Part shown: positions 3,606 through 39,163 of the stretch, one piece after another
How positions within the stretch are numbered: the first letter of the stretch is position 1
Layout of the letters: the number at the start of each line of letters is the position of its first letter
Source of the DNA: an uncultured Gammaproteobacteria bacterium
GTDB lineage: Bacteria; Patescibacteriota; Patescibacteriia; GCA-002772895
DNA: 62,856 bases
Assembly (NCBI GenBank): GCA_964522845.1
Contig: CAZFZQ010000001.1
Location: 6,559-69,414 of the forward strand
Direction of reading: 5' to 3'
The notes under the pieces: generated by a model
What the model was told of the DNA's origin: nothing
The model's input: only the letters and a program-made list of their open reading frames with translations
Databases searched by the model: none
Program-made: the position numbers and the translations under genes

Positions 3606-3631
3606 AAATACTAAATAAATAAGTTTATTTT

Positions 3632-5506: not shown

Positions 5507-5523
5507 TATGTGATGGAAATTTT

Positions 5524-7428: not shown

Positions 7429-7442
7429 TTCTCGGCTTTTAT

Positions 7443-8387: not shown

Positions 8388-8465
8388 AATAAACAGTTTT
8401 AATGATATCAAAAGATATCGGCGCGGTTTTAGCGCTTTGGTAAACGGCTGTTTTTATCATAAATT

Positions 8466-9329: not shown

Positions 9330-9336
9330 TTTTTTT

Positions 9337-10518: not shown

Positions 10519-10544
10519 ACATAAGAAAATTTAAAATTATATTT

Positions 10545-11237: not shown

Positions 11238-11242
11238 GCTTT

Positions 11243-12661: not shown

Positions 12662-12670
12662 AATTATCGT

Positions 12671-14368: not shown

Positions 14369-14404
14369 TATTCATGCTTGCATAAAATCAAAATTTGGAT
14401 TAAT

Positions 14405-16706: not shown

Positions 16707-16708
16707 AT

Positions 16709-17416: not shown

Positions 17417-17422
17417 GTATTT

Positions 17423-18496: not shown

Positions 18497-18499
18497 TTT

Positions 18500-19501: not shown

Positions 19502-19525
19502 TGCAAAAAAGTTATTGGTTTTTTT

Positions 19526-22365: not shown

Positions 22366-22375
22366 AATATATTTT

Positions 22376-23062: not shown

Positions 23063-23092
23063 ACGCACTACGGTTGTTTTATGGCGCAATAA

Positions 23093-24478: not shown

Positions 24479-24479
24479 T

Positions 24480-25085
24480 ATGCAGACAACGTCTGAAGTA
24501 ACACAATATTTATCAAAATATATAAGCGGGAGAACGCTTGATTTTGGCGCAGGCGGTGCCAAATATCGCGATATAATCAAGAGAAATGCAAACGAGTATA
24601 TCGCTTTTGATATGATGCCGGGAAAAAATATTGATGTCGTGGGCGACGTAATGAGCGCGCCATTTGCTGCGGCTGAATTTGACACCGTTATTTCCACGCA
24701 AGTGCTGGAGCATGTGGAAAAGCCGTGGATAATGATCGGCGAAATAAGCCGTATCTTGAAATCCGGCGGGAAGTGCATTTTGACCGCGCCATTTTTACAG
24801 CCGTATCACAATGACCCTGGAGATTATTTTCGTTATACGAAAGATGGCATGGCGTCTCTTTTTAAAAATAGCGGATTTAAAATCGTGGAATGCGGCAGTT
24901 ATGGGAAAATTTTTACCGTTTTGTCCGAATTTATTAAGTTTATTTATTTTGATCCTTATAAAAAACAGAAAAAAGGCGCGCCGCGCATTTTGGTTTTTTT
25001 GCTAAAAATGGCGAGATTTCTTGACAAGTATGCGAAAAATGATAAGATTTATTCCAATGTATATATTGTGGCCGAGAAATTGTAA
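24480..25085 (+). CDS. class I SAM methyltransferase (Methyltransf_11-like)
   Basis: TLDFGAGG, STQVLEHV, LKSGG. Confidence 0.75.
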   Translation: MQTTSEVTQYLSKYISGRTLDFGAGGAKYRDIIKRNANEYIAFDMMPGKNIDVVGDVMSAPFAAAEFDTVISTQVLEHVEKPWIMIGEISRILKSGGKCILTAPFLQPYHNDPGDYFRYTKDGMASLFKNSGFKIVECGSYGKIFTVLSEFIKFIYFDPYKKQKKGAPRILVFLLKMARFLDKYAKNDKIYSNVYIVAEKL

Positions 25086-25088
25086 ATT

Positions 25089-26312
25089 ATGAAAATCGCC
25101 ATTCTACAAGATGAAATGCCGTGGGATTCCGTTGGCGGGGCCGGCGTGGTTGCGCTTGATTTAGCTAAAGCATTGTGCCATCGCGGGCACGATGTTTTTG
25201 TTATTTGCGCCACGCACAGAGATGTGCCTGAATATGAAGAAAGAGGCGGCTTGAGAATATACAATATTAAAAACAGGCCATTTGGTTTTTTAAGATATTA
25301 TTTTTGCCTATATAATCCGCAGATCGTGCCAAAAATCCGTAAGATTTTTGAAAAAGAAAAACCGGATGTTGTTCATTGCCATAATTTGCATTCCGCCTTG
25401 TCGTACCATTCTTTGAAAATCGCCAAAAAAATCGCCAAAAAAATTTTTATTACCACGCATGACGCAATGATGTTTAATTACGGAAAATTGGCCAGTGCAA
25501 GATATTTAAAAAATTTTGATTGTCGGGCGTCTTGGATTGATAACTTTAAAACAGCGGGGAAGCAATATAATCCGCTGCGCAATATTTTAATCAAACATTA
25601 TTTAAAATATGCGGACAAAATTTTTGCAGTCAGCCACGCGCTCGCGGACGCTTTGAATCAAAACGGAATTAAAAATATAGCCGTTGTTTATAATGGCGTG
25701 GACATAGGCTCCTTTCGTGCCGAAGAAGATGATGTTAAAAATTTTAAAAAACATCATAACCTGGAGGGGAAAAAAATTATTTTTTTTGCGGCCAGAATCA
25801 GCCGGGAAAAAGGGCCGGAAACATTATTGCGGGCATTGCCTCATATCTTAAGACGGATTCCTAATGCTGTTTTGCTTATCGCCGGCGACGGCAACGAATC
25901 GTATGTAAAAATTTTGAAAAATATTGCCGCCTCCGCCGGCTTGGAAAATGCCGTTTTGTTTTTAGGCAGAGTTCCTTATGAAGAAATAGACAAATTTTAT
26001 TTTATTGCCGATGTCGCGGTGACGCCGTCAATTTATTTGGATCCGTTTAATTTGACGAATATTGCGGCTATGGCCGCAAAAAAACCGGTCGTGGGCACCT
26101 GCTACGGCGGCACTCCGGAAATTGTTTTAGATGGAAAAACCGGTTTCATAATCAATCCTTTTAATATAGAAATCATGGCTGAAAAAATTTCCAATTTGTT
26201 GGAAGATGAACAATTGTCCGAAGCGTTCGGTGCGGAAGGAAATAAAAGAGTAAAAGAAAAATTTTCTTTGGAAAAGCAGGTTGATGAAACCTTGCGATAT
26301 TATAATGAATAG
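25089..26312 (+). CDS. GT4 (group 1) glycosyltransferase
   Basis: MKIAILQDE...GGAGVVALDLAKAL at the N-terminus. C-terminal region NIAAMAAKKPVVGT..GGTPEIVLDGKTGFII. Confidence 0.85.
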   Translation: MKIAILQDEMPWDSVGGAGVVALDLAKALCHRGHDVFVICATHRDVPEYEERGGLRIYNIKNRPFGFLRYYFCLYNPQIVPKIRKIFEKEKPDVVHCHNLHSALSYHSLKIAKKIAKKIFITTHDAMMFNYGKLASARYLKNFDCRASWIDNFKTAGKQYNPLRNILIKHYLKYADKIFAVSHALADALNQNGIKNIAVVYNGVDIGSFRAEEDDVKNFKKHHNLEGKKIIFFAARISREKGPETLLRALPHILRRIPNAVLLIAGDGNESYVKILKNIAASAGLENAVLFLGRVPYEEIDKFYFIADVAVTPSIYLDPFNLTNIAAMAAKKPVVGTCYGGTPEIVLDGKTGFIINPFNIEIMAEKISNLLEDEQLSEAFGAEGNKRVKEKFSLEKQVDETLRYYNE

Positions 26313-26315
26313 TTT

Positions 26316-27770
26316 ATGTCTGATGTAATTTTATTTTTTCCGAAAGTCAAAGAAGATGGTTCATCGGCTTTTTTGCCGGCCAATCTTTTAATGGTGGCCG
26401 CGCCGCTCGTGGCAAAAGGGGTGTCTGTTAAAATTATCGATCAGCGCACGGATGAAAACTGGCGCGAGATATTATTGGAAGAATTGAAACGAGAGCCGCT
26501 TGTTGCCGGCTTCACGTCTCTTACGGGCAAGCAGTTGCTCTACGCGCTTGAGGCGAGCAAAATCGTCAGAGAAAACAGCCGGGCGAAAATTGTCTGGGGC
26601 GGCATTCACGCTTCTCTTTTACCGGAGCAGACGCTCGAGAACGGCTGCATTGATATAGTGGTCGTGGGAGAGGGCGAGGAAACATTCAGCGAGCTTTACG
26701 GCCGGCTGAAAGACGGGCGTCCGTACGAAGATGTTTTGGGGTTGGCATATAGGAAAGACGGAAAAATTTTTGTAAATCCCCCAAGGAGTTTTATCAATTT
26801 GGATTCATTGCCGGAATTGCCGTATCATTTGATTAAAATGGAAAAGTATATCAGTTCAAAATCTTTCGCTTCCGGCCGGCCGGCAAAAAATATTTTTTTC
26901 TTTACCAGCCGCGGTTGTCCGCATCATTGCGGATTTTGTTACAACGAGGGCTTCAACAAGAGGCGGTGGCGGGGGATGAGCGCGGAACGGACTTTCAAAG
27001 AAATTAAGCGGCTGTATGATGAGTATGGCGTTACGGCTTTCGATATAGAAGATGATGAATTTTTTACTGATTTGGCGCGCGTAAAAAAGTTTTGCGGATT
27101 GGTTATCCAAAACAATTTGAAGATTGAAATTTTTACTTCCTGCCGCCTGAATTATTTAGACAGAATGGATGATGATTATTTGGAATTGATAAAAAAAGCC
27201 GGTTTCTTGATACTATCTTTTGGCGTGGAAACCGGATCGGAGAGAATGCTAAAATTTGTGGATAAGGATATCACAATAGAACAGGTTCTGCGCGGTGTTG
27301 CCCGCCTGCAAAAAGCCGGCATCGGTTCAAAATATTATTTTATGGTCGGTTTTCCCACGGAGACGATAGAAGATATGTATGCGACAACGGATTTAATGCA
27401 AAAAATGAAACAAATTTCACCGGGCATCCGCATTCCGCAATGGCGCGTTTATGCGCCGTATGCCGGTACATTGCTTTACATCTTAAGCCAGGAACACGGT
27501 TTTGTGCCGCCGGTTTCCATTGCGGAGTGGTCAAAGTTTGAATACTCCGTTATCAATACGCCGTGGATTACTCCAAAAATGCGGCGGATTGTGGAAAATG
27601 TTATTTTTCTGTTAAAATATTTGGAGGTAGACAAGAGTGATGGACCAGCATGGCTGACCAAGCTTTACAGTAAAACAATCAATTGGCGATGGAAGCGGCA
27701 TTGGCTCGGTTTTGTGCCGGAGAAAAAAATAATTGAAAAAATTTTATCATTAAAATACGGAGGAAGATAA
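26316..27770 (+). CDS. B12-binding-domain radical SAM protein
   Basis: The N-terminus looks like a flavodoxin/B12-type domain. Cluster CPHHCGFC. IEDDEF and FGVETGS motifs. Confidence 0.85.
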   Translation: MSDVILFFPKVKEDGSSAFLPANLLMVAAPLVAKGVSVKIIDQRTDENWREILLEELKREPLVAGFTSLTGKQLLYALEASKIVRENSRAKIVWGGIHASLLPEQTLENGCIDIVVVGEGEETFSELYGRLKDGRPYEDVLGLAYRKDGKIFVNPPRSFINLDSLPELPYHLIKMEKYISSKSFASGRPAKNIFFFTSRGCPHHCGFCYNEGFNKRRWRGMSAERTFKEIKRLYDEYGVTAFDIEDDEFFTDLARVKKFCGLVIQNNLKIEIFTSCRLNYLDRMDDDYLELIKKAGFLILSFGVETGSERMLKFVDKDITIEQVLRGVARLQKAGIGSKYYFMVGFPTETIEDMYATTDLMQKMKQISPGIRIPQWRVYAPYAGTLLYILSQEHGFVPPVSIAEWSKFEYSVINTPWITPKMRRIVENVIFLLKYLEVDKSDGPAWLTKLYSKTINWRWKRHWLGFVPEKKIIEKILSLKYGGR

Positions 27771-27771
27771 T

Positions 27772-28575
27772 ATGAAAGATTACAAAGTCGGCATAATGGG
27801 GATAGGTATGGTGGGGGGAGCTACGGCGCGTTATTTTGAATCAAAAGGCATAAAACCGTTTCTTTATGATCCGCCGCGGGGCTTGGATTCCAAAGAAGAA
27901 ATCAACAAGGCGGAAATGGTTTTTATTTGCGTGCCTACGCCTTATGACGATGAGAAGGGCGGTTTTGACTTATCTTTTGTCAGGCAGGCAATTTCTATTT
28001 TAAACGGAGAAAAAATTGTTGTTTTGAAATCAACGATTTTGCCCGGCTCAACCGATGATTTGCAGGCCGAATTTCCTCAGCATAAGATTTTATTTAATCC
28101 GGAATTTTTGACCGAAGTCACGGCGGATCAAGATATGAAATTTCCCGACCGCCAGATTGTGGGCTATACGGAAAAAAGTTTTAATGTAGCCAAGGATTTG
28201 ATGTTGCTTTTGCCGCTCGCGCCTTTTGAAAGAATCGTTCCGGCTAAGGTTGCGGAAATTGTAAAATATTTTAATAATACATGGTTCGCGACCAAAGTTA
28301 TTTTTGCCAATCAGGTTTATGATGTTTGTGGAAAATTAAACGCGGATTACGATTTAATCGCCGAATGCGCGTCAGCGGACAAACGCGTTGGGCCATCGCA
28401 TTTGCAAGTTTTACATAAAGGGTATCGGGGTTACGGCGGCAAGTGTTTGCCCAAGGATACGCGCGCTTTCATTCAGCTGGGCGAACGTTTGGGAGTGGAT
28501 TTGAAATTATTAAAAATGGTTGAGGAAATTAATAATGATTTGATTGGCAAACAAGGAATGAACGGAAAAATTTAA
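27772..28575 (+). CDS. UDP-glucose/GDP-mannose dehydrogenase-family protein, short form (no C-terminal UDP-binding domain)
   Basis: Rossmann motif GIMGIGMVGG, NPEFLTE, and catalytic-Cys motif GGKCLPKD. It is only 267 aa. Confidence 0.7.
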   Translation: MKDYKVGIMGIGMVGGATARYFESKGIKPFLYDPPRGLDSKEEINKAEMVFICVPTPYDDEKGGFDLSFVRQAISILNGEKIVVLKSTILPGSTDDLQAEFPQHKILFNPEFLTEVTADQDMKFPDRQIVGYTEKSFNVAKDLMLLLPLAPFERIVPAKVAEIVKYFNNTWFATKVIFANQVYDVCGKLNADYDLIAECASADKRVGPSHLQVLHKGYRGYGGKCLPKDTRAFIQLGERLGVDLKLLKMVEEINNDLIGKQGMNGKI

Positions 28576-28578
28576 ATT

Positions 28579-29484
28579 ATGAAATATCTCGTAACCGGCG
28601 GGGCGGGGTTTATTGGGACGAATTTAGTAAAAGAATTGCTGGCGCAAGGCCACGAGGTTGTTGTGATTGATAATTATGCCGGCGGAAGAAAACCGGAGCG
28701 GATGCAAAACGGCGCCACATATTTTGAGGGCGATATCCGCAAGCCCGAGGATTTGAATAATGTTTGTCGAAACGGTTTTGATGGAATATTTCATTTTGCC
28801 GCTTTGCCCAGAGTGACTTTTTCCGTGGAGCATCCGGCGGAAACGCACGCGGCCAATGCTACTGGTACATTAAATGTTTTAATCGCCGCGCGGGATCATA
28901 AAATAAAACGCGTGATTTTTTCTTCATCGTCGTCGGTTTATGGCAATCAAGAAATTTATCCTTTGAAAGAAGATTTTATTCCGTTGCCCATCAGTCCCTA
29001 TGCTTTGCATAAATTTATCGGCGAACATTATTGCCGGCTGTTTAATAGTCTCTATGGGCTGGAAACCGTCTGCCTCCGGTATTTTAATGTCTATGGCCCG
29101 TATTTTGATCCCGAAGGGGCGTACGCCTTGGTTATTGGCAAGTTTTTAAAACAAAAAAAAGAAGGCACGCCCATGACTGTTTGCGGCGATGGAGAATATT
29201 ATCGCGACTACACGCACGTTTCCGATATCGTGCGCGCCAACATCGCGGCCATGCAGTCGGATAAAGTTGGACGAGGCGATGTATTTAATATCGGAAATAA
29301 TAATCCGCATTCGGTAAACGAATTGGTTAAAATGATCGGCGGAGAATTTGTTTTTGTGCCGCCCCGCCCGGGCGATGTCCGCTTTACTCAAGCTGACAAT
29401 TCTAAAGCCAAAGAAATTTTGGTCTGGGAACCGAAAGTTCGGTTGGAAGAGGGGATAGAAGAATTGAAAAAAATGTATTTATAA
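28579..29484 (+). CDS. NAD-dependent nucleotide-sugar epimerase/dehydratase (extended SDR)
   Basis: VTGGAGFIGTNL, SSSSVYG, YALHK (YxxxK). Confidence 0.85.
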   Translation: MKYLVTGGAGFIGTNLVKELLAQGHEVVVIDNYAGGRKPERMQNGATYFEGDIRKPEDLNNVCRNGFDGIFHFAALPRVTFSVEHPAETHAANATGTLNVLIAARDHKIKRVIFSSSSSVYGNQEIYPLKEDFIPLPISPYALHKFIGEHYCRLFNSLYGLETVCLRYFNVYGPYFDPEGAYALVIGKFLKQKKEGTPMTVCGDGEYYRDYTHVSDIVRANIAAMQSDKVGRGDVFNIGNNNPHSVNELVKMIGGEFVFVPPRPGDVRFTQADNSKAKEILVWEPKVRLEEGIEELKKMYL

Positions 29485-29515
29485 AAAATCAGCCCTGTTA
29501 TCGTGCTGATTTTTA
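29484..29515. terminator. bidirectional hairpin terminator between convergent genes
   Basis: AAAAATCAGC - 11-nt loop - GCTGATTTTT. It overlaps the stop codon of the minus-strand gene. Confidence 0.55.
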
Positions 29516-30895
29516 TCTCCCCCTAAATCTCAAAATAGTATTTATGGTTTTAAGTATGATGGTAGCGTCCAAAAGAAATGACCGATTTTTGATATAAAAA
29601 ATATCGTACTGCAATTTTTTCAGATTCTGTTCCGCGTTTCCGGCGTAAGGATAATTTATTTGCGCCCAGCCGGTCAGCCCGGGCTGCACTAAGTTCCGTA
29701 AAGGATAAAATGGTGCCTTTTCCGTAAATTCCGCCACAAACTCCGGCCGCTCCGGCCGGGGGCCGATAAAGCTCATCTCGCCCAAAAGAACATTTAAAAT
29801 TTGAGGCAGTTCGTCAATTCGCGTCCGCCGCAAAAATTTTCCGAAGCGGGTGATGCGGCTGTCGTTTTCTCCGGCAAATTGCGGCGCGCCCGCTTCCGCG
29901 TTTTTCACCATGGTGCGGAATTTGTAAATTTTGAAAATCCTCCCGTTTTTGCCAACTCTTTTTTGCGTGTAAAAAATCGGCCAGCCGTCGCTCGCCAATT
30001 CCCCAATCGCGACAATCGGAAAAATTGCCACAAACACGACGCCCAAAATTCCGGCCAGAATATAGTCGGTCGCGATTTTACCGCGGTCGTATATCTTTTT
30101 CTCCGCTTCTTGCAAATTATCCAAAAACCATCCTTGGGTTAAATTTTCAATCGGCAATTTGCCCGTCACCTGTTCATATAATTTTAACAAATTGATAAAA
30201 GTGATGTTGGAAAAAATCAGCTGATAGAGCTTGGCGTTCGCGGTTTCATCAATATTTTTTCCATGATGGACGGCGATGGTGTTCACGCCCAATGCTTTTG
30301 CGTTTTGGATCATTTCTTCCATGGCCGGCTGTTTTATGTCCAAGTCCGGAATTTTTTCATCGGCCACCACGCAGACGACTTCATATCCCAGCTGCGGCTC
30401 GTTTTTGAAAGCGGTAATCAGCTCGCGCACTTCTTTGGAATATCCCAAAAAAGCAATGCGGGTTTTAAAAATATATTTCGCGGTTATCAGATTGTAGGCG
30501 GCGCGCCAGATGATGATAAGGAAAGCGGCGATGGCGGCGTCCATGAAAAGAGTTGTTTTTGGCGCAATTCCAAAAATTGGCGTAAGATAGAAGAAGAAAG
30601 AGGCGATAAAAACATTGATGGCAAAACTTTCAAGCAGCGTCCGGAAAAGAACCAAATTATTTTTCAAAAAATTCAGGTTATACAAATTTTGAGAATAAAA
30701 AACCGCCACCCAGATAAGATAAATGATGACAAAGGGATAAAAATGCAATTGCCAGTTTGCGTTTATATAAGCTTGACTGAAACGGAGGTACAGGGTAATA
30801 TAAAGAGAGGCGAAAAGAAGGAATAGATCGCCTAAAAGCAGGATTATTTGTTTAAGCTTAGCGAGAATTAACATAGGTATTGTTAAAAACATCAT
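29513..30895 (-). CDS. polyprenyl-phosphate glycosyl-1-phosphate transferase (bacterial sugar transferase, WbaP/PglB-type initiating enzyme)
   Basis: N-terminal TM helices. C-terminal motifs PIFYTQKRVGKNGRIFKIYKFRTM and DELPQILNVLLGEMSFIGPRPERP. Confidence 0.9.
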   Translation of the reverse strand: MMFLTIPMLILAKLKQIILLLGDLFLLFASLYITLYLRFSQAYINANWQLHFYPFVIIYLIWVAVFYSQNLYNLNFLKNNLVLFRTLLESFAINVFIASFFFYLTPIFGIAPKTTLFMDAAIAAFLIIIWRAAYNLITAKYIFKTRIAFLGYSKEVRELITAFKNEPQLGYEVVCVVADEKIPDLDIKQPAMEEMIQNAKALGVNTIAVHHGKNIDETANAKLYQLIFSNITFINLLKLYEQVTGKLPIENLTQGWFLDNLQEAEKKIYDRGKIATDYILAGILGVVFVAIFPIVAIGELASDGWPIFYTQKRVGKNGRIFKIYKFRTMVKNAEAGAPQFAGENDSRITRFGKFLRRTRIDELPQILNVLLGEMSFIGPRPERPEFVAEFTEKAPFYPLRNLVQPGLTGWAQINYPYAGNAEQNLKKLQYDIFYIKNRSFLLDATIILKTINTILRFRGR

Positions 30896-30925
30896 AGCTT
30901 ATTTTGCGTAAAAAATCAAGGGTCT

Positions 30926-31597
30926 ATGAAAAAAGCAATTATAATTTTAATAATTTTAATTTTATTGGCCGGCGGAGGCATTGTCGGCTATTTTTCTTGG
31001 CAAAAAGCCAAGGAAGCTAAGTTTTTATCAGCCAATCCGCAAACCGCGGAGGCTTACGCGCTAATTCAAAAAAGAGAAACCCAGCTCAAAAAAGATAAAA
31101 ATAACTATGATTACATGATGAGCATTGCTTTTAATTGGAAGGGCATTGGCGAGGTGACGAAAAACAATGAATATTTAAAGCGATCTATAGCGATGTATGA
31201 CCAAGTGATTAAACGCTGGGGCAACAAGGCATACTTGCCGTTTTTGAATCGCGCCAATGTTTATATTGAATTGAAGGATTACATACGCGCCGAGCAAGAT
31301 CTGAAAATTGCCTTGGAAATTGACCGCGGCGAGCAAAATCTTTATATCGCTTTGGCGAATTTGTACAAAGACTACATGAAGAAAAGTAATGATGAGGTTA
31401 AAGCAGTATACACAAACGCCATGCAAATAATAGTGGGAGGCGGCAATTTGGTTAACAATTACGCCAGTTTCTTGAATGAAATTGGAGACTATAAAGAAGC
31501 TTTGAAGTATTATAAAATGTTAAAACAGGCTTATCCTAACAATCTCGGTTTTGATGAAGCGATTAAAGAGCTTGAAGAAAAACTTCCAAAAATATAA
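30926..31597 (+). CDS. membrane-anchored TPR-repeat protein
   Basis: N-terminal TM segment (IIILIILILLAGGGIVGYF) followed by repeats typical of TPR (A..Y..A). Confidence 0.6.
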   Translation: MKKAIIILIILILLAGGGIVGYFSWQKAKEAKFLSANPQTAEAYALIQKRETQLKKDKNNYDYMMSIAFNWKGIGEVTKNNEYLKRSIAMYDQVIKRWGNKAYLPFLNRANVYIELKDYIRAEQDLKIALEIDRGEQNLYIALANLYKDYMKKSNDEVKAVYTNAMQIIVGGGNLVNNYASFLNEIGDYKEALKYYKMLKQAYPNNLGFDEAIKELEEKLPKI

Positions 31598-31616
31598 TAA
31601 CAAGATAAATAAAGAA

Positions 31617-31680
31617 GTGAGTAGTAAATAGTGAGTAGTGTTTTTCCTAACTACTAACTACTAACTACCAACTACTCGCT
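31617..31680 (+). repeat. imperfect hairpin whose 3' arm is a heptamer tandem repeat (TAACTAC x4, 31648-31675)
   Basis: GTGAGTAGT (31617-25) pairs with ACTACTCGC (31671-79), including one G:U. The 3' arm has 7-nt periodicity. Confidence 0.7.
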
Positions 31681-31690
31681 ATTAACTATT

Positions 31691-32686
31691 ATGGCCAAGG
31701 AAAATGTTCTCGTGACCGGCGGCGCCGGTTTTATCGGTTCGCACTTATGCGAACGGCTTTTAAAAGATTATAACGTTGTTTGTTTGGATGATTTTTTGAC
31801 CAGCAGCGAGAAAAATATCAACCACTTGGTCCAGCTCCCAAATTTTGAATTTATAAAACAAAACTTGTCGGACGATTTTGACTTGGAGGCGGTGCCGGAA
31901 TTGGCCAAATTTCAAATAAATGTTAAGGGATTTAAGGCGATTTTTAATTTATCTTGCCCCACCTCGGCCAAAAATTTTGACGCATTAAGGATTACCACAT
32001 TGGATTCTAACAGTGTGGCTATGAAAAATGTTTTGGAGCTTGTGAGAAAATATAAATCAAAATTTGTCCATATTTCTTCATCTGTGGTTTATGGCGGCAG
32101 GGATAAAATGAAAGGAAAGGTAACGGAAGACGAAGAGGGGATCGTAAACCATTTATCCCCGCGCGGCTGTTATGATGAGGGAAAGCGTTTTGCGGAAACC
32201 GCGGTCGCGACTTATCACCAGGTTTATAAAACCGATTATAAAATCGCCCGCGTTTTCCGGACATACGGCCCGCGCGAACGCCTTTTTGACGGCGAGATGG
32301 TGCCGGATTTCGTGGTTGACGCGGCCAATAACAAAGATTTGATAATTTATGGCGACAAAAATTTTCAAACCTCTCTGGTTTATGTGTCTGACGTGGTGGA
32401 TGCGCTTGTAAAATTGATGAGCGCGCGCGCGGATATCGGTCCGGTGAATATCGGTTCGGACGTGGATTTAAAAATCGTTGATGTGGCTAAAAAAATTATT
32501 GAAATGACCGGATCAAAATCCAAAATTGTTTTTGACAAACCTCTGCCGTTTATTACCGAGCTGGTTTTGCCCGATATTACCAAAGCTAAAGAAGAACTGA
32601 GCTGGCTGCCCCTCGTTCGCCTGGAAGACGGATTGAAGAAGACTATTGATTATACTTTGGCGCATAAAGAACTGCTGGGAATTTAA
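31691..32686 (+). CDS. UDP-glucuronate decarboxylase (UDP-xylose synthase)-like SDR
   Basis: VTGGAGFIGSHLCERL and catalytic YDEGKRFAE, typical of UXS-type enzymes. Confidence 0.75.
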   Translation: MAKENVLVTGGAGFIGSHLCERLLKDYNVVCLDDFLTSSEKNINHLVQLPNFEFIKQNLSDDFDLEAVPELAKFQINVKGFKAIFNLSCPTSAKNFDALRITTLDSNSVAMKNVLELVRKYKSKFVHISSSVVYGGRDKMKGKVTEDEEGIVNHLSPRGCYDEGKRFAETAVATYHQVYKTDYKIARVFRTYGPRERLFDGEMVPDFVVDAANNKDLIIYGDKNFQTSLVYVSDVVDALVKLMSARADIGPVNIGSDVDLKIVDVAKKIIEMTGSKSKIVFDKPLPFITELVLPDITKAKEELSWLPLVRLEDGLKKTIDYTLAHKELLGI

Positions 32687-32714
32687 TTACTAATTACTAA
32701 TTACTAATTACTAA
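32687..32714 (+). repeat. heptamer tandem repeat TTACTAA x4, immediately after the stop codon
   Basis: Exact 7-nt periodicity. It is related to the upstream TAACTAC repeat. Confidence 0.85.
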
Positions 32715-32735
32715 TTTTCAAGAGTTTTTGGATGA

Positions 32736-33422
32736 ATGAATATATTTGTTGTTATTCCCGCTTATAACGAAGAAAAAGCTATTGGCCAGACCGTTTCTGA
32801 TGTACGCAAAATTCTTGCCCCGCGGAGTCTTGGCGAAGTGGGGTGTTCAAATATTATCGTTGTTGATGACGGCTCCGGCGACAAAACCGCTGAGGCGGCC
32901 GAGGTTGCCGGCGCAACTATTTTGCGGCATATTGTGAACCGCGGACAGGGAGCGGCGCTTCGCACGGGGATAAATTACGCGCTGGCGCAGGGCGCAGACG
33001 CAGTTGTTACTTTTGACGCTGACGGCCAATTTGAAGCCGAAGAAATTGGAAAAATTTGCGCGCCGCTCGCGGATGGGTTTTGCGACGTTGTCTTGGGTTC
33101 AAGATTTTTAACTCAAAATAAAATTCCGTTTATAAAAAGATTAATTCTTGCTCCGGCGATTTTTTTTACACGGTTGCTTACGGGTTTAAATTTGTCCGAT
33201 ACGCATAACGGTTTTCGCGCTATGAGCCGCGGGGCGGCGGAAAAAATAAATATCCGCCAAGACAGAATGGCGCATTCGTCGGAAATAATCCATGAAATAG
33301 CCCGGCTGAAACTCAAATTCAAAGAAATTCCCGTTACGGTTAAATATACAGAGTATTCTAAGCGTAAAGGACAAAAAATTTCGGGAGCACTCAAAATTTT
33401 ATTTGATTTGATAATGAAGTAG
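32736..33422 (+). CDS. GT2 glycosyltransferase (polyprenyl-phosphate sugar synthase-like, soluble form)
   Basis: IFVVIPAYNEE, VDDGSGDKT and FDADGQ. It contains an in-frame copy of a repeat at 32814-32843. Confidence 0.85.
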   Translation: MNIFVVIPAYNEEKAIGQTVSDVRKILAPRSLGEVGCSNIIVVDDGSGDKTAEAAEVAGATILRHIVNRGQGAALRTGINYALAQGADAVVTFDADGQFEAEEIGKICAPLADGFCDVVLGSRFLTQNKIPFIKRLILAPAIFFTRLLTGLNLSDTHNGFRAMSRGAAEKINIRQDRMAHSSEIIHEIARLKLKFKEIPVTVKYTEYSKRKGQKISGALKILFDLIMK

Positions 33423-33423
33423 T

Positions 33424-33756
33424 ATGGTATTAATTCAATATATCCTGATTCTCGTCATTATTTGCGTCTTGTTGCAAACGCTGGCCAAATTTCGGGCGAA
33501 AAATATTAGCTCGCGGGAGTTTCTGTTTTGGGTGGTTTTTTGGCTCGCGGTAGGCACGGCGATTTTGATGCCGAAGTTTACGGTTTTTTTGGCAAACTAT
33601 TTGGGCGTTGGCCGCGGCGCCGATCTTGTGGTCTATGCCTCACTTATCTTTGTTTTTTATATGATTTTTCGCGTTTTTTCCCGGCAGAATAAAATAGAAA
33701 AAGATATATCAAAAATAGTTGAAAAATTGGCGATTAAAAATAAGGATCAAAAATAA
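33424..33756 (+). CDS. small 3-4 TM membrane protein (DUF2304-like GT2 partner, recalled from memory)
   Basis: 110 aa, hydrophobic, with a 1-nt gap after the GT2 gene. Confidence 0.55.
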   Translation: MVLIQYILILVIICVLLQTLAKFRAKNISSREFLFWVVFWLAVGTAILMPKFTVFLANYLGVGRGADLVVYASLIFVFYMIFRVFSRQNKIEKDISKIVEKLAIKNKDQK

Positions 33757-33758
33757 TT

Positions 33759-33896
33759 ATGGATAAAAAGAAAAAAATAAAAAAAATCAGAACGCTGGTT
33801 AAGAATATTATAAAGTTGGAGAAGGAGATTGGCGATTTGGATGCTTATAAAGAAAAATTAGATAAAGTTAGGTCTAAATATGATAGAAAAGTTTAA
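33759..33896 (+). CDS. possible 45-aa lysine-rich micro-ORF
   Basis: ATG at 33759; MDKKKKIKKIRTLVKNIIKLEKEIGDLDAYKEKLDKVRSKYDRKV. It overlaps the next ORF start by 17 nt and is not in the ORF track (<60 aa). Confidence 0.25.
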   Translation: MDKKKKIKKIRTLVKNIIKLEKEIGDLDAYKEKLDKVRSKYDRKV

Positions 33897-35397
33897 ATTG
33901 TCCACCGCCGAAGCCGTTCCAAAATCGCAAGAAGAAGGCGAGAAATTAAAAGCAGAGGTTTTAGATATGTCACCCAGAGAATTGGTTGATTATTTTAAAT
34001 TTTTAGAAAAAGAAGGCAAGTTATTAAAATTTTTGGAAGACAACTTAGAGGATGACGCCGTAATGGCGCATTTCAGTTATTGGGAAAAATGGTTGAAGAA
34101 AGACCATCGCCGACTCGTGGACGAAGCGGTGGAGAAAAAGAAACAATTATATCCTGGAAATTCCGAGTCCCTGCCTTTGAATTTGGATAAAAAATTTTCC
34201 CAACAAGAATTGGATTTGATTTTTAAAAATCTTGGCGCCATACAATTAACTTTTGGATGTTCCAAGGGCTGTCCGTTTTGTGGTTTTGACGCTATCAAGG
34301 GAGTAAGGGAGGCAATCCCTTATTCGCAATTGGCTAATTTATTCAAAAATCATGGAGATAAGTTAAAAAGAAATGAACCTTTACTTTATTGGGCGTCCGA
34401 GCCATCCGACTATGCATCAAAAGAAGGGTTAGAAGATAAAACTTATGCAGATGTTCATCAATTGGCGGTAGAATATGCCGGATATAATCCCCATATAACA
34501 AGCAAGGAAACCACTGATGAAAAATGGGTAGATTTTTTACAGACCGGGCCGATAAATAACCCGAGAGTCAGTGTTTATGGATTGGACGCAAAGGCATTGG
34601 TCGTAGTAGAGAAAAATTTTTCTATTTCCGGTAAATCTGTCCGAAACGCAATGACAGCAGTTGGAGAGGGAGAAAAACATAAGAAAGGGATGGGCATTTC
34701 TGCCGAAAAAAATGATATGCCGAATGAATTTGGCATCGGTTGTTTTAATGGCACTCTTTTGACGCCAAGGGGATTGTATAATGTAATCCAGGTGCCGATT
34801 TCTAAAAAATATCCGCAGGGACAGATGATGGTTCCGATTGAAAAAATTGAGACCGGGGAAATAAAAATAGGAGATTATTTGCCGGATATTTTAAAGGCAG
34901 GCGCCATAGTTAAGCATAAAAGAGACCGTTCAATAATGGATAATTTAGAATATTTTACTTTGAAATCCGGCGGCAGTACCTATGATGTTGCCATTGATGA
35001 AAATTTTATTATTACAGATATGCTTTGTTGGGATGAGAAAGAAGAGAATGCTGATAAAATGGGGCTCGCAGTGGGAGCTAGGGGTGTAAGCGGTAGTGAA
35101 GAACACATAAAAAGACGAAGGGATCTCCAGAATGCCAATGGAATATCAAATGGTTATTTCCCGCGGTTATCTAATTTTTTGTCGGTTTTTAAAAGCTTGT
35201 CTCCGATAGGAGGACAAGCTGAGGTTACTTTTGGAGACTTTCATCTTCAGCCCGTTGATATGGAAAAAGCAGAGGAACTCTTGATGGCTCCAATGGACAT
35301 TTATCGCGCGATAATAACACACAAACAACTTCCAGTAAATCCGAAATTAACTTTGAAATTTGAAGGAAATGTGGTCACGGTATTTTATGAAGTATAA
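33880..35397 (+). CDS. orphan protein with a radical SAM-type CxxxCxxC motif
   Basis: C127-x3-C131-x2-C134 (FGCSKGCPFCGF, nt 34258-34281) and YWASEPSD downstream. A ~120-aa helical N-terminus and ~350 aa of unrecognisable C-terminus. Confidence 0.55.
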   Translation: MIEKFKLSTAEAVPKSQEEGEKLKAEVLDMSPRELVDYFKFLEKEGKLLKFLEDNLEDDAVMAHFSYWEKWLKKDHRRLVDEAVEKKKQLYPGNSESLPLNLDKKFSQQELDLIFKNLGAIQLTFGCSKGCPFCGFDAIKGVREAIPYSQLANLFKNHGDKLKRNEPLLYWASEPSDYASKEGLEDKTYADVHQLAVEYAGYNPHITSKETTDEKWVDFLQTGPINNPRVSVYGLDAKALVVVEKNFSISGKSVRNAMTAVGEGEKHKKGMGISAEKNDMPNEFGIGCFNGTLLTPRGLYNVIQVPISKKYPQGQMMVPIEKIETGEIKIGDYLPDILKAGAIVKHKRDRSIMDNLEYFTLKSGGSTYDVAIDENFIITDMLCWDEKEENADKMGLAVGARGVSGSEEHIKRRRDLQNANGISNGYFPRLSNFLSVFKSLSPIGGQAEVTFGDFHLQPVDMEKAEELLMAPMDIYRAIITHKQLPVNPKLTLKFEGNVVTVFYEV

Positions 35398-35408
35398 TTG
35401 TTGATTTT

Positions 35409-36503
35409 ATGCCTCCAAAAGTCGGCGTGGTGATGGTCAATTATAATAATTACGCAAAATATTTTGAAGATTTATTTTTTTCTTTAAAAAAATCCCAATA
35501 TCCTAATTGGGAAATTGTTTTTATAGACAATGCCTCAACCGACGGAAGCGTGGATTATCTGAAAGAAAAGTTTGCTCCGCAATTTCCCAACCTGACAATA
35601 ATAAAAGTTGATAAAAATTCCGGTTTTGCCACGGGAAATAATATCGGATTAAAATATTTGCAAGATAAAGATTTTGATTATGCCTACTTATTGAATTTGG
35701 ACACGACGGTCGCGCCTGATTTTTTAGAACGCGCGCTCGCGAAAGCGGGGGATGATGTCGGCTCCGTGCAGTCGCTTATTCTTTTGCATCCTTCGGTTGC
35801 AAAAGCGGGAGCGGCAATGTTATCAAATACTTTAGGCAACGCCATTCATTACCTTGGTTTTGGATATTGTTACGGATACGGCTGGGAAAAAGAAAAATGG
35901 GAAAAATACCTGGTTGATTGGCGCGTACGCGATCCGGAATTGAATATCGCCTATGGTTCAGGCGCGGGAATCCTCCTGAATATGCGCGCCCTGCGTGAAA
36001 CGGGTTTTTTTGACGACATATATTTTATGTATCACGAAGATTTGGACTTGGGCTGGCGCTTGCGGCTCGCGGGCTACAAAAATATTTTGGCGCCGGAGTC
36101 GGTGATTTATCACAAATATGAATTTTCCAAGTCCATTAAAAAATATTATTGGATGGAGCGCAACCGTTTTATCACCATGATGAAAAATTATTCAGGGCTG
36201 ACGCTGATTTTAATTTTTCCGGCGCTGGTAATAATGGAATTCGGGCTTTTGCTGTTCTCATTCCGTTCGGGATGGTGGCGGGAAAAGCTTCGCGTGTATG
36301 AATATTTTTTACATCCGAAGCGTTGGCGCGTGATTGCTTCCGGCCGGCACCGGGCGCAAAAATTGCGCAAGGCCTCGGATCGTCAAATCGCAAAACATTT
36401 TGTCGGGGAAATTTTATTTCAGGATATGGACAGTCCGCTTCTCACGAAAATTGCCAACCCGATTTTTAATTTGTATTGGAAAATTATTCAAAGATTGATA
36501 TAG
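35409..36503 (+). CDS. GT2 glycosyltransferase (rhamnosyl/galactofuranosyl-transferase-like subgroup)
   Basis: VGVVMVNYNN, IDNASTDGS, LNLDT, and YHEDLDLGWRLRLAGY with a C-terminal TM segment. Confidence 0.8.
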   Translation: MPPKVGVVMVNYNNYAKYFEDLFFSLKKSQYPNWEIVFIDNASTDGSVDYLKEKFAPQFPNLTIIKVDKNSGFATGNNIGLKYLQDKDFDYAYLLNLDTTVAPDFLERALAKAGDDVGSVQSLILLHPSVAKAGAAMLSNTLGNAIHYLGFGYCYGYGWEKEKWEKYLVDWRVRDPELNIAYGSGAGILLNMRALRETGFFDDIYFMYHEDLDLGWRLRLAGYKNILAPESVIYHKYEFSKSIKKYYWMERNRFITMMKNYSGLTLILIFPALVIMEFGLLLFSFRSGWWREKLRVYEYFLHPKRWRVIASGRHRAQKLRKASDRQIAKHFVGEILFQDMDSPLLTKIANPIFNLYWKIIQRLI

Positions 36504-36510
36504 GGGGGGG
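36503..36510 (+). repeat. G8 homopolymer between a stop codon and the repeat element
   Basis: taGGGGGGGG. The first G is the last base of the TAG stop. Confidence 0.9.
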
Positions 36511-36515
36511 CTTGA

Positions 36516-36649
36516 CCCAGTAAGACCAACTTTGGCTGTTTTTTCTCTAAATTTAGCTAAAATAAAGATTTGAGTTTGTAGAAATCAACTAACTTTTATC
36601 CAAAATCAAACTTTAAAAAAGACTTAATTTCCAAAGTTGTCTTACTGGG
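36516..36649. mobile_element. 134-bp ORF-less element with terminal inverted repeats (MITE-like), same TIR as the GIY-YIG element
   Basis: CCCAGTAAGACCAACTTTGG (36516-35) and CCAAAGTTGTCTTACTGGG (36631-49). Flanking direct repeat CTTGA (36511-15 and 36650-54). Confidence 0.5.
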
Positions 36650-36650
36650 C

Positions 36651-36679
36651 TTGACAAAAGAGCGAAAATGTGCTATACT
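36651..36679 (+). promoter_or_regulatory. sigma70 consensus-like promoter
   Basis: TTGACA (36651-56), a 17-nt spacer, TATACT (36674-79), 27 nt upstream of the ATG at 36707. Confidence 0.6.
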
Positions 36680-36706
36680 TCTCGCATATTTCAATAATGC
36701 TCAAAT

Positions 36707-37675
36707 ATGCTTAAATTAGGCAAAATAGCACTCTTTTTAGCCATATTCGCGGTTTTCGCCGCCGGTATTTTTGCATACAAAACAAAAGCCGAGGCCGCAA
36801 GCTGTGATTCCCCCTTTCAATATATAGATAAGACGGATGAGGTGTATAATCGCTTCATTTGCGATAAAAACGTCCAGGTTTATTATTTTCCCGTAGTTTC
36901 CGACGGCCGCAAATATACGATTACTTTGAAGGACTTGTCCGGCGACCAGAAGCTTTATGCCAGCCGCTATAAGGGCGAAGTTGATAAAATTGACAATCTG
37001 TTAAATTGGCGCTGCAAGGGATATCATTGCGACAGCGCGACGAGCTATGGAGATACGAAGTTTGTAACTTTTGCCGCGCCGGAAGGAGAGCGGGATTATT
37101 ACAGCTGGTTTGCGGTTTATGGCGCAACCGCCGGCCGATACCAAGTTGGCGTTTCCAATGGCGGCGTGATTCAGTTTGCCTCCGCCGACAACCCCGTCAT
37201 TTCAAATACTTCAAACATAGCTTATAATTCATACTTAACCGGCGACTTGCCTTCCATTGTTTGGAAAACCATGCCGCTCGCGAGCAATTATTCTTTTTTC
37301 AATAATTATTGGACCAGTATTTATTTTAACGACAATGATTGGTCCTACATATCGTTGCCGGATAACGGCTGGGGATGCGAACATTGTTATCGCGCGTATC
37401 GCGGAACTTTTTATTTGGACGCGGTGCCAAGCAATTTACAAATGCATTTTGCAAGCGATGACGGAGCGCAAATTTTTGTAAATGGCCAATCCATCGGCAA
37501 CTGGGGGGGGCAAAACAAGGATGGCGCCGGCGGCTGTGTGAACAATAGCAATTGCGCGGCTAATATAAATATCGGCGATATTCCACTTACCAATTTAGTG
37601 AAGGGGAAAAATGTAATTTCCGCGTTTGTTGTGAACGGCCCGCATGGTTCATATTTTAATTTTAATTTGAAATAA
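36707..37675 (+). CDS. secreted protein with beta-sandwich domains (C-terminal PA14/GLEYA-like, tentative)
   Basis: Signal peptide MLKLGKIALFLAIFAVFAAGIFAYKTKAEA. FASDDGAQIFVNGQ segment. Contains a G8 run. Confidence 0.65.
   Translation: MLKLGKIALFLAIFAVFAAGIFAYKTKAEAASCDSPFQYIDKTDEVYNRFICDKNVQVYYFPVVSDGRKYTITLKDLSGDQKLYASRYKGEVDKIDNLLNWRCKGYHCDSATSYGDTKFVTFAAPEGERDYYSWFAVYGATAGRYQVGVSNGGVIQFASADNPVISNTSNIAYNSYLTGDLPSIVWKTMPLASNYSFFNNYWTSIYFNDNDWSYISLPDNGWGCEHCYRAYRGTFYLDAVPSNLQMHFASDDGAQIFVNGQSIGNWGGQNKDGAGGCVNNSNCAANINIGDIPLTNLVKGKNVISAFVVNGPHGSYFNFNLK
37503..37510 (+). repeat. G8 homopolymer inside the secreted-protein CDS
   Basis: aac tgg ggg ggg caa (NWGGQ). Confidence 0.9.
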
Positions 37676-37707
37676 AAGGCAGTTTGGGGTAGAATCGTAT
37701 TTATATG

Positions 37708-38016
37708 CCCGGTAAGACCAACTTTGACCTCTTGCTATGTTCTACGCTTACGTGCTTTTAAGCTTGAAAGATAAAGAAAAATATATCGGCTATACTGCCG
37801 ACTTAATAAAACGCATGGAAGAACATAGCAAGGGATTGAATTTTTCCACAAAATACAGAAGACCATTGAAACTTATTTATTACGAAGCATGTCTTGATGA
37901 AAGAGATGCTAAGCAAAGAGAAAAATATCTAAAAACGACAGCTGGACGAAGATTTTTAGCCAAAAGATTAAAATATTATCTTTTTTACTGATTATTTTCA
38001 AAGTTGTCTTACCGGG
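37708..38016. mobile_element. 309-bp TIR-bounded element carrying only a GIY-YIG nuclease gene
   Basis: CCCGGTAAGACCAACTTTGA (37708-27) and TCAAAGTTGTCTTACCGGG (37998-38016). Flanking direct repeat TATG (37704-07 and 38017-20). Confidence 0.55.
37737..37991 (+). CDS. stand-alone GIY-YIG nuclease domain protein (YhbQ/COG2827-like)
   Basis: 84 aa with YAYVL...KYIGYT (GIY...YIG), R/E/N core residues, and KRLKYY at the end. Confidence 0.85.
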   Translation: MFYAYVLLSLKDKEKYIGYTADLIKRMEEHSKGLNFSTKYRRPLKLIYYEACLDERDAKQREKYLKTTAGRRFLAKRLKYYLFY

Positions 38017-38017
38017 T

Positions 38018-39163
38018 ATGAAGATTGCCCAAGTTGTTTGCACCTTTCCGCCATATCGGGGCGGGATTGGCAATTCCGCGTACAATTTAGCTAAAAATTT
38101 CGCCTTGCAGGGCGAGGAGGTCTGTGTTTTTACGCCGGACTATAATACCGCAGGCTTCCCGACCCCCTACAGCGAGGGATTTAAAATTGAGAGGATAAGA
38201 CCTCTTTTTTCGTCTGGAAACGCAGCCGTCTTGCCTCAGCTTATGTGGCGGCCAAGAGGTTTTGATGTCATCCATCTTCATCTGCCGTTTTTGGGCGCCA
38301 CGCTTCCCATCTTCTGGTTTTCTATTTTCCATCCAAAAATCAAGCTGATCGTTACTTATCATATGGATTTGGCCGGAACGGGATTGAAGAAATCTATTTT
38401 TGATTTGTATAAAAAAATTGCCCTTCCCTTAATTTTTCACCGCGCCAATAAAATTATTGTCAGTTCGTATGATTACGCGGAGAACTCCGATATTAAAAAT
38501 TTTTTAGCCAAACATAAAAATAAATTTGTGGAAATTCCTTTCGGCGTTGATGAACACAAATTTTGTCCAACGGAAAAAAACGCCGCGCTCGCGGAAAAAT
38601 ATTTTATTGACGCGGAAACTAAGACGCTTCTTTTTGTCGGGGGCTTGGACGCGGCGCATTATTTTAAGGGCCTGGATATTTTATTGCGCGCTTTAAAAAA
38701 AGTGGCGGAGTCGGGTTTGGAAAATATAAAACTTATCGTCGTGGGCGACGGGGAACTGAAATCCGAATATCAAAATCAGGCCGAGTTTTTGCATTTGCGG
38801 GATAAAATTATTTTTGCGGGAAATATTTCCGATGCCGAACTCCCGGATTATTACAATTTGGCGGACGCGTTTGTCCTGCCGTCAATTGATAAGTCCGAGG
38901 CCTTCGGCTTGGTTTTGCTTGAGGCGGCCGCTTGCGCAAAGCCCGCGATCGCGTCGGATTTGCCCGGCGTGCGCATGGTGGTAAAAAATAATCAGACCGG
39001 ATTTTTATCCAAGCCGGCTGATGTTGACGATTTAGCGGAAAAAATCAAACAATTATTTTCCGATAGCGAGATGATAAAAAAAATGGGCAAGTCCGCCCGT
39101 GAAATGGTTTTGGAAAAATATAGCTGGGAAAAAGTTGCAGAGGTTTATTTAAAAAATTTTTAA
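38018..39163 (+). CDS. GT4 (group 1) glycosyltransferase
   Basis: MKIAQVVCTFPPYRGGIGN at the N-terminus. C-terminal SEAFGLVLLEAAACAKPAIASDLPG...NNQTGFL. Confidence 0.85.
   Translation: MKIAQVVCTFPPYRGGIGNSAYNLAKNFALQGEEVCVFTPDYNTAGFPTPYSEGFKIERIRPLFSSGNAAVLPQLMWRPRGFDVIHLHLPFLGATLPIFWFSIFHPKIKLIVTYHMDLAGTGLKKSIFDLYKKIALPLIFHRANKIIVSSYDYAENSDIKNFLAKHKNKFVEIPFGVDEHKFCPTEKNAALAEKYFIDAETKTLLFVGGLDAAHYFKGLDILLRALKKVAESGLENIKLIVVGDGELKSEYQNQAEFLHLRDKIIFAGNISDAELPDYYNLADAFVLPSIDKSEAFGLVLLEAAACAKPAIASDLPGVRMVVKNNQTGFLSKPADVDDLAEKIKQLFSDSEMIKKMGKSAREMVLEKYSWEKVAEVYLKNF

Follow-up and report, generated by a model that had tools for sequence, protein, structure and literature searches.

A very divergent radical SAM enzyme of CPR bacteria and its conserved small companion gene, a possible two-gene peptide-modification cassette

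Within a stretch of 62,856 nucleotides (nt) from an uncultured bacterium (deposited as a gammaproteobacterium and placed by GTDB in the Patescibacteriota; assembly GCA_964522845.1, contig CAZFZQ010000001.1, positions 6,559 to 69,414, hereafter the window), an open reading frame (ORF) of 505 amino acids (aa) lies among genes for glycan synthesis, and its start is overlapped by a second ORF of 45 aa, here called the micro-ORF. Is the large protein a radical S-adenosylmethionine (SAM) enzyme, is the small frame a gene at all, and do the two belong to each other or to the sugar genes around them? An initial annotation had taken the large protein for an orphan, perhaps of a new radical SAM subfamily acting on the glycan, or for the enzyme of an enzyme and small-partner pair; both ORFs and their 17-nt overlap in different frames lie where it had placed them (Table 1). 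Our analysis gives high confidence, jointly, in four points: the large protein belongs to the radical SAM class, the small frame is a real gene, their pairing is conserved, and no other neighbouring gene is.

The 505-aa protein scores 21.5 bits against the radical SAM model PF04055 at aa 122-245, which is below the gathering score of 29.5 bits; 46 of the 87 family members compared match the same model at E<=1e-3 (best E 6e-10), and a distant member (P0174) reaches 34.8 bits. The full-length AlphaFold model (predicted local distance difference test, pLDDT, 82.5; predicted template modelling score, pTM, 0.83) consists of an all-helical N-terminal domain (aa 17-116, with pLDDT >94 for aa 20-120), a core of alternating strands and helices, a beta sheet, and a poorly predicted tail with low confidence at aa 442-484. 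When the core was modelled separately (aa 100-350, with 143 sequences in the alignment), strands and helices again alternated, at pLDDT 91.6 and pTM 0.89. Using this core model in an all-against-all structural search (VIA), the first 39 rows were radical SAM enzymes, including two (4jy8 and 2qgq) which we take to be such. The best matches were BtrN (Z 8.4, 168 residues aligned, root-mean-square deviation (rmsd) 4.9) and EpeE (Z 8.3, 200 of 251 residues aligned, rmsd 5.0), followed by SkfB (7.8), SuiB (7.5), ChlB (7.4), viperin (7.4), SpeY (7.2), and BlsE (6.9), and lower down by 5wgg (6.6), PqqE (6.4), and DesII (6.2), where Z below 8 can, according to the tool's own note, reflect a common arrangement. 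The full model gave radical SAM enzymes in its first 23 rows, with a maximum Z of 6.8. Foldseek searches of the PDB with the full and core models returned no row at E<=1e-3 (best BtrN, E 0.017, probability 0.97), and a profile of the 87 members found 0 matches among PDB sequences at E<=10.

The radical SAM call rests on the uniform fold list, the invariant Cys triad, and the order of the motifs in combination. The triad (C127, C131, C134), which the initial annotation had noticed about 125 aa from the N-terminus, is Cys in 85 of the 87 aligned members, and the remaining two have gaps. The GGEP-like ASEPSD that it had also pointed out falls within YWASEPSDY (aa 169-177), and the ASEP motif is conserved; its equivalence to GGE is by position only, and a position after the second strand fits the usual motif order of the superfamily. 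Structure prediction places a partial barrel, that is, a radical SAM core, around the triad, and the new subfamily that had been suspected is borne out. Sequence and models together place the 505-aa protein in an uncharacterised subfamily of the radical SAM enzymes, as a real though highly divergent member with a single predicted [4Fe-4S] cluster.

The protein has many relatives, contrary to the orphan status first given to it. In a word-indexed search, 87 clusters of proteins came up at 34-57% identity to it, and those that are named are almost all 'hypothetical protein' from metagenome-assembled genomes of Patescibacteria, the Candidate Phyla Radiation (CPR). An exhaustive HMMER search of 1.84 billion representatives (50% identity) found 353 relatives at E<=1e-3, of which 203 reach E<=1e-10 and 93 reach E<=1e-30. 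The family ranges over CPR bacteria, with a core-only form in DPANN archaea; genome scans yielded 20 CPR loci and 4 DPANN archaeal loci, and a metagenome scan yielded 47 loci. The core-only relatives (4 archaeal and 10 metagenomic) are ~290-400 aa long and match only aa 100-320, and so lack the N-terminal domain. We found no relative of the enzyme in viral contigs and no model in Pfam or NCBIfam that covers the enzyme family or the micro-protein, and, judged by titles and the starts of abstracts, none of the papers listed in a literature search deals with the enzyme family.

Two alignments, of 30 and of 87 sequences, agree on a conserved block from about aa 25 to 345 and on a C-terminal region that is unalignable, with no conservation past about aa 345-380; family lengths span 308 to 745 aa, and no Pfam domain recurs in the C-terminal region across the 87 members. 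The conserved blocks are SYWEKW (66-71), LPL (98-100), the Cys triad, D137, A138, ASEPxD (172-177), P204, ITS, R229xS231, TPRG (295-298), and PQG (312-314; PQGQ). Among these, A172 and S173 are invariant in the 87 sequences, E174 is invariant in the 30, and P296, R297, and G298 of TPRG are invariant. The only Cys to recur besides the triad is C288, just before TPRG (Cys in 72 of 87, Ser in 7), and no conserved Cys follows it in the 87 members; four of the members listed have only three Cys in the whole protein. The N-terminal domain carries a net negative charge in 95% of the 87 members (median -7).

A 45-aa ORF alone is not beyond chance here, since the surrounding 13 kb holds 90 ORFs of >=40 aa, and the micro-ORF is counted as real because it is conserved in other loci. 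In 14 of the 20 CPR genome loci, the ORF directly upstream of the enzyme gene is a small one that matches a hidden Markov model (HMM) of the micro-ORF (E 7e-9 to 1e-21), the HMM itself having been built from these sequences; a fifteenth (L006) was found by reading. The same HMM detects an upstream micro-ORF in 26 further metagenome loci, which are independent of the training set except for duplicates. After loci were collapsed at 97% nucleotide identity, 48 unique full-length loci remained, of which 47 were evaluable (L064 has no upstream sequence), and the micro-ORF stands directly upstream in 35 of these, 34 by HMM and one (L059) by eye. The small frame stays open in the orthologous regions, and the ratio of nonsynonymous to synonymous substitution rates (dN/dS, by NG86) is 0.31, 0.23, and 0.33 in the three pairs with unsaturated dS, the other pairs being saturated. 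These results carry the enzyme and small-partner pair that the initial annotation had put forward, by way of the conservation and Ka/Ks comparisons that it had suggested. Thirteen small proteins of this sort are in the protein database, each either unnamed or labelled 'hypothetical', and the copy from the window is not one of them. In a quick tree, for which the careful search is unfinished, the micro-ORF is present through most of the bacterial clade (4 changes against 8.1 with shuffled labels) and is missing on the long branches of L017, the L011/L014/L020 group, L016, and L027. None of the 14 core-only relatives has a micro-ORF. Its conservation shows that the micro-ORF is a real gene and a conserved companion of the enzyme.

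Stop/start overlaps of 4-50 nt are usual across the loci, and L005 has a gap instead; no fusion of the micro-protein to any of the 190 proteins compared was found. A programmed frameshift joining the two ORFs is unlikely in view of these varying overlaps, the gap in L005, and the lack of a fused form. Beside a distant 552-aa relative in L028 (1276..2931; core match, E 1.5e-16), a small Lys-rich aliphatic ORF (1121..1282) overlaps the start of the large gene, and its match to the micro-ORF HMM is not significant (E 0.1).

The overlap also invites the reading that the micro-ORF is only a regulatory upstream ORF, for translational coupling or as an arrest peptide, with a functionless product. Its conserved stop/start overlap and Lys-rich sequence would fit such an element. 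However, about 41 residues are conserved at the amino-acid level with dN/dS of 0.23-0.33, and the C-terminal end is the least conserved part, whereas arrest peptides are usually most constrained at that end. We hold this reading to be highly improbable.

The surroundings of the family were then compared across loci. Among 126 ORFs around 24 loci (20 CPR and 4 archaeal), no neighbour recurs by Pfam and only the micro-ORF is conserved; most of the neighbours are varied housekeeping genes. Within three genes on either side, all 20 CPR genome loci are free of glycosyltransferases. Only 5 of 401 sampled genomes of the phylum match the enzyme at E<=1e-10, of which 3 are strong, the genome of the window included, and no match occurs among the same-class genomes listed; that genome (906,894 bp, 94.4% complete) has one copy. 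The GC content is 0.34-0.40 in the cassette and 0.41-0.46 in the flanks. The unrelated neighbours and the rarity of the family lead us to regard the context of family 2 glycosyltransferases (GT2) in the window as local. Judged from these distributions, the cassette is probably a horizontally scattered, autonomous two-gene unit of CPR bacteria, and its place among sugar genes is probably accidental.

These comparisons bear directly on the glycan reading of the initial annotation, in which the target of the enzyme would be a sugar or glycan intermediate of the island, with the micro-ORF as an incidental frame. It can draw on the tight operon spacing between the upstream GT2 and DUF2304 genes and the second GT2 gene, on an island whose content includes, besides many glycosyltransferases, six methyltransferases and seven further radical SAM genes, and on the sugar-modifying BtrN (8.4), SpeY (7.2), BlsE (6.9), and DesII (6.2), which rank beside peptide maturases in the fold search. 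Yet the absence of glycosyltransferases near all 20 CPR loci, the rarity of the family, the micro-ORF as sole conserved neighbour, and a nearest curated family that is peptide-modifying all speak against it, and this part of the initial annotation was not supported. The enzyme may have a glycan role in this one genome; the family-wide evidence says otherwise, and we regard the reading as quite improbable.

Some neighbours deserve mention in their own right. In three of the 20 CPR loci, a Fic or RhuM-Fic gene stands at most a few genes away from the cassette (L005 10286..11272, L007 7388..8260, and L010 1220..2188), and other genes near cassettes encode a DUF772 transposase (L004), a serine recombinase (L007), an HNH nuclease with a DNA methylase (L016), and a Phd/YefM-like protein (L020). 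Membrane proteases stand beside three of the four archaeal core-only relatives (CPBP/Rce1-like in L022, 6935..7537; M48 in L023, 6881..7771, and in L024, 94..975), and an M48 peptidase gene lies ~600 nt downstream of one CPR gene (L009 2421..2900). Pairs of the LemA and HtpX type are common, so such adjacency could be chance; the proteases may be a coincidence or a hint of peptide processing. At a single locus (L073 723..1255, minus strand), two adjacent ORFs of 93 and 83 aa, divergent beside a core-only relative, match only the C-terminal glycyl-radical end of NrdD.

The cassette appears to bring its own expression signal. All micro-ORFs start with ATG, and a Shine-Dalgarno-like motif precedes 3 of 35, as against 14% of random positions. 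Within the 45 nt upstream that were examined (33714..33758 in the window), a -10-like hexamer ending 5-10 nt before the ATG was found for 22 of 34 micro-ORFs, whereas the share was 33% among control ATGs preceded by sequence just as rich in AT (binomial p 1.7e-4, an optimistic value because the loci are related). This arrangement suggests that the micro-ORF has a dedicated promoter and a leaderless or near-leaderless message.

The micro-proteins are 37-71 aa long, almost free of Cys, and basic, with net charges of +3 to +17. The product in the window, rightly called Lys-rich at the outset, has 14 Lys and 3 Arg and a net charge of +9. Hydrophobic residues at positions 7, 10, 13/14, 20, 24, 27, 30, 34, 37, and 41 form a heptad-like stripe. 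Of the 35 micro-proteins, 33 have Ile at position 10 (Leu in the other 2) and 32 have Leu at position 20 (Ile in the other 3); 30 retain E23, 27 have Tyr or Phe at position 30, and 22 have Tyr at position 41. The helix is conserved to about residue 41 and is followed by a hypervariable tail of 2-30 aa, which is Arg/Lys-rich in some. A conserved helix with a variable tail suggests the pattern of peptides that are made on ribosomes and modified after translation (RiPPs); the DNA encoding the tail is also partly shared with the start of the enzyme gene, which is unconstrained. Long Arg/Lys-rich tails (20-30 residues, net +16 or +17) occur in L034 (2317..2517), L040 (2269..2481), and L065 (361..546), where they overlap the start of the enzyme gene by several tens of nt. 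Because only those 27 of 35 have Tyr or Phe at position 30, crosslinking at the central Tyr is unlikely to be the chemistry throughout the family. Neither the ESM Atlas, which gave no usable match to the micro-protein, nor PADLOC, which gave for it (P0002) only coiled-coil-type matches at chance level (E 0.01-0.07), identified a known relative.

Among curated families, the only NCBIfam model to recur is TIGR04517 (rSAM_PoyD; radical SAM family RiPP maturation amino acid epimerase). The 505-aa protein aligns to it over aa 57-182 (profile positions 56-189) at 26.3 bits, or 27.3 bits in a genome scan, and residues 57-116 of the N-terminal domain fall within this weak match. The model also matches 12 of 13 other members, including all four archaeal ones, at 18-48 bits, and 9 of 15 distant members at up to 55.5 bits; in a scan of the window's genome and 14 control genomes, only this gene matched. 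A homologue search with P0155, the most PoyD-like member, yielded four unnamed proteins. Among the nearest clusters in the ESM Atlas are some named 'RiPP maturation amino acid epimerase' (features 0.93, with 181 of 256 shared; structure TM 0.40-0.46). By these comparisons, the enzyme is most like epimerases of the PoyD/OspD type, yet it is not a member of that family.

PoyD and OspD share with the present family a radical SAM core, a single [4Fe-4S] motif, and the lack of SPASM/twitch Cys, and, besides the aligned region before the Cys motif, a small peptide gene adjoins the enzyme gene in both. Proteusin epimerases are described in PMC13012085 as lacking the auxiliary cluster that EpeE has, and PMC8326336 names one strictly conserved Cys in PoyD homologues, Cys372, as the proposed H-atom donor. 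The differences lie in an extra Cys that is not strict here (72 of 87), in scores of 18-55 bits against the TIGR04517 cutoff of 325, in a companion that is a 45-aa basic helix rather than a precursor with a long nitrile-hydratase-like or Nif11-like leader, in a cassette without other tailoring, protease, or export genes, and in a range of CPR bacteria and DPANN archaea. EpeX and EpeE (YydF/YydG) of Bacillota likewise pair a precursor of ~50 aa with a radical SAM epimerase, and EpeE is one of the two best structural matches; however, EpeE has an auxiliary cluster in an extended twitch domain which the present family lacks, the epe locus encodes a protease and an ABC exporter of which neither is conserved at the loci here, and no sequence relationship beyond the superfamily is detectable. 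Permeabilisation of membranes, as reported for the mature epipeptide in PMC13012085, would suit a cationic amphipathic peptide such as the micro-protein. The SPASM/twitch enzymes (SkfB, SuiB, CteB, and PqqE, and the sugar-modifying BtrN) share the core fold at Z 6.4-8.4, yet the present family has no auxiliary-cluster Cys, no PF13186 match in 87 members, and no PqqD-like recognition element, its N-terminal domain being predicted as all-helical. The motif order of CxxxCxxC, a GGE-like motif, and then an xTS and an RxS strand resembles that of the SPASM/twitch branch.

From this kinship and the paired layout, we tentatively favour the reading that the micro-protein is the substrate of the enzyme in an autonomous two-gene peptide-modification cassette, and we put its probability a little short of even. 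Both proteins would be translated from the same message, and the basic helix would dock in the manner of a leader on the acidic N-terminal domain, as suggested by the opposite charges of the domain (median -7) and the micro-protein (+3 to +17). Reductive cleavage of SAM would then give a 5'-deoxyadenosyl radical, which would take a hydrogen from one of the micro-protein's residues. Our first guess at the most likely outcome is epimerisation, given the kinship to PoyD/OspD and EpeE; C288, in members that have it, would hand the hydrogen back. Another radical modification is the alternative.

A number of observations weigh against a substrate role. Twelve of the 47 unique loci have no recognisable micro-ORF, and in five of the genomes concerned no copy was found elsewhere (best E 0.12), so that the enzyme apparently can exist without it. 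No tandem copies of the micro-ORF were seen at the metagenome loci, and no protease, transporter, or immunity gene is conserved, a leader protease or exporter recurring nowhere among the 126 ORFs. Besides the aliphatic I10 and L20, no residue of the micro-protein is nearly invariant, and a helix with such a continuous heptad-like stripe could equally be a structural binding element or a substrate. The contact between the two proteins is one that we infer from their sequences; a complex prediction of enzyme aa 1-400 with the micro-protein, 4Fe-4S, and SAM (ipSAE 0.01 and 0.00) is evidence neither way. On the side of the enzyme, the fold scores are modest, with the sugar-modifying BtrN, BlsE, SpeY, and DesII tying with peptide maturases, all TIGR04517 scores (18-55.5 bits) are far below the cutoff of 325, the extra Cys expected of an epimerase is absent in 15 of 87 members, and in the window the cassette is surrounded by a glycan island that contains seven further radical SAM genes.

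Several of these points suit a micro-protein that is a stoichiometric partner or adaptor rather than a substrate, a basic helix that stabilises the enzyme or guides it to RNA, DNA, a membrane surface, or some other polyanionic target. The stripe together with the conserved R17 and E23 resembles a packing helix, no position in the micro-protein is an invariant candidate target, the long Arg/Lys-rich tails recall nucleic-acid-binding proteins, and the charges of micro-protein and N-terminal domain are complementary; RiPP accessory genes are absent, and two of 13 members give weak MiaB/RimO matches. However, the loci without a micro-ORF exclude an obligatory subunit, the nearest curated kin are peptide-modifying enzymes, and no nucleic-acid-binding domain was detected in the enzyme by Pfam across the 87 members. 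We consider a partner role doubtful, with a real if smaller share of the probability.

The layout can also be seen as that of a conflict module, akin to toxin-antitoxin or defence systems, with a small upstream neutraliser, a radical SAM effector, and tail variability arising from an arms race. Type II toxin-antitoxin pairs are built in this way, with the small gene first and a stop/start overlap; the family is patchily distributed, with 5 of 401 genomes matching, the enzyme has a hypervariable C-terminal region, the GC content is below that of the flanks, and mobile or conflict genes lie near some loci (L004, L005, L007, L010, L016, and L020). Against this, PADLOC has no match for the 505-aa protein (P0001) or for P0005, P0076, and P0084 and only the chance-level matches for the micro-protein, no known toxin or antitoxin domain and no viral relative were found, and the neighbours are mostly housekeeping genes. 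PHROGs gave nothing for the 505-aa protein and only a weak match (phrog_35107) for distant members. A conflict module is in our estimate improbable.

Table 1. Positions of the cassette, of the parts of its enzyme, and of surrounding genes in the window (aa, residues of the 505-aa protein unless stated otherwise).
Feature	Position	Strand	Basis
Enzyme gene (505 aa, ATG)	33880..35397	+	ORF list and translation
Micro-ORF (45 aa, ATG; basic amphipathic helix; first cistron of the cassette)	33759..33896	+	ORF list and homologues in other loci
17-nt overlap of micro-ORF end and enzyme gene start, in different frames; putative translational coupling	33880..33896	+	ORF coordinates; recurrent overlaps (4-50 nt) at homologous loci
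Acidic all-helical N-terminal domain (aa 1-116)	33880..34227	+	Model, charge, conservation
Radical SAM core (aa 117-345): predicted partial beta/alpha barrel, then beta sheet	34228..34914	+	PF04055 match, model, fold search
CxxxCxxC, FGCSKGCPFCGF (C127, C131, C134), predicted [4Fe-4S] ligands	34258..34281	+	Sequence and alignment
ASEP (aa 172-175), putative counterpart of the GGE SAM-binding motif	34393..34404	+	Alignment; position
C288 (GIGC), only other recurrent Cys, candidate H-atom donor	34741..34743	+	Alignment
Hypervariable C-terminal region (aa 346-505) and stop codon	34915..35397	+	Alignment, low model confidence
GT2 gene, upstream flank	32736..33422		Pfam
DUF2304 small membrane protein gene, ends 2 nt before the micro-ORF	33424..33756		Pfam
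Second GT2 gene, starts 11 nt after the enzyme gene	35409..36503		Pfam
Other radical SAM genes	75..755; 9280..10518; 11243..12661 (B12-binding); 26316..27770 (B12-binding)		
Three tandem SPASM-type radical SAM genes	15531..16706; 17423..18496; 18500..19501		

The cassette had been described as wedged between GT2 genes; a GT2 gene does lie on each side, with the DUF2304 gene intervening upstream. The upstream GT2 best resembles PpgS, a polyprenyl-phospho-N-acetylgalactosaminyl synthase (NCBIfam, 193.7 bits against a cutoff of 370), and the DUF2304 gene follows it after a 1-nt gap. Because this GT2 is PpgS-like, it and the DUF2304 gene look like a complete two-gene unit of their own.

The island extends over 75..39163 (~39 kb). 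Its seven other radical SAM genes comprise two to four of the B12 type and three of the SPASM type, and none of them reaches any NCBIfam cutoff. The island also holds six class I methyltransferases, five GT2, three glycosyltransferases of family 4 (GT4), two PMT_2 transferases, an asparagine synthase, a flippase, sugar epimerases, sugar-nucleotide enzymes, and a Bac_transf initiating transferase. The radical SAM ORF at 75..755 matches only Pfam positions 61-166 and positions 253-449 of HpnJ-like B12 radical SAM models, and looks like the C-terminal part of a longer gene near the window edge. A UDP-glucose/GDP-mannose dehydrogenase ORF of only 267 aa (27772..28575) has an N-terminal match from profile position 69 and no match to the C-terminal domain, which suggests that the gene may be truncated or split. 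Between glycan genes, an 84-aa ORF with a GIY-YIG nuclease domain (37737..37991; E 1e-13) may have been left behind in the island by a mobile element.

The pairing of a radical SAM enzyme with a small peptide gene is already known in kind; this example is set apart by a new enzyme branch, its distinct acidic N-terminal domain, the basic helical companion, a minimal, mobile, and possibly leaderless layout, and a range restricted to CPR bacteria, with core-only kin in DPANN archaea. A 45-aa gene that is missing from the protein collection of its own genome proves, on its conservation, to be real. CPR bacteria and DPANN archaea have tiny genomes with few recognised specialised-metabolite genes. 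That the pair is kept across many CPR lineages, carries its own promoter-like signal, and moves between unrelated sites points to a self-contained function that earns its place in genomes of ~1 Mb. Should the enzyme act on the micro-protein, the cassette would be an unusually small peptide-modification system and a new branch beside the proteusin epimerases. Conceivably, though we think it rather unlikely, it could represent a new and minimal RiPP-like class restricted to ultra-small episymbionts, in which a leaderless two-gene cassette makes a cationic amphipathic peptide, radically modified (e.g., with D-residues) by a previously unrecognised radical SAM branch, as a membrane-active agent against hosts or competitors. 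The variable tails of both the enzyme and the peptide would then reflect diversifying selection.

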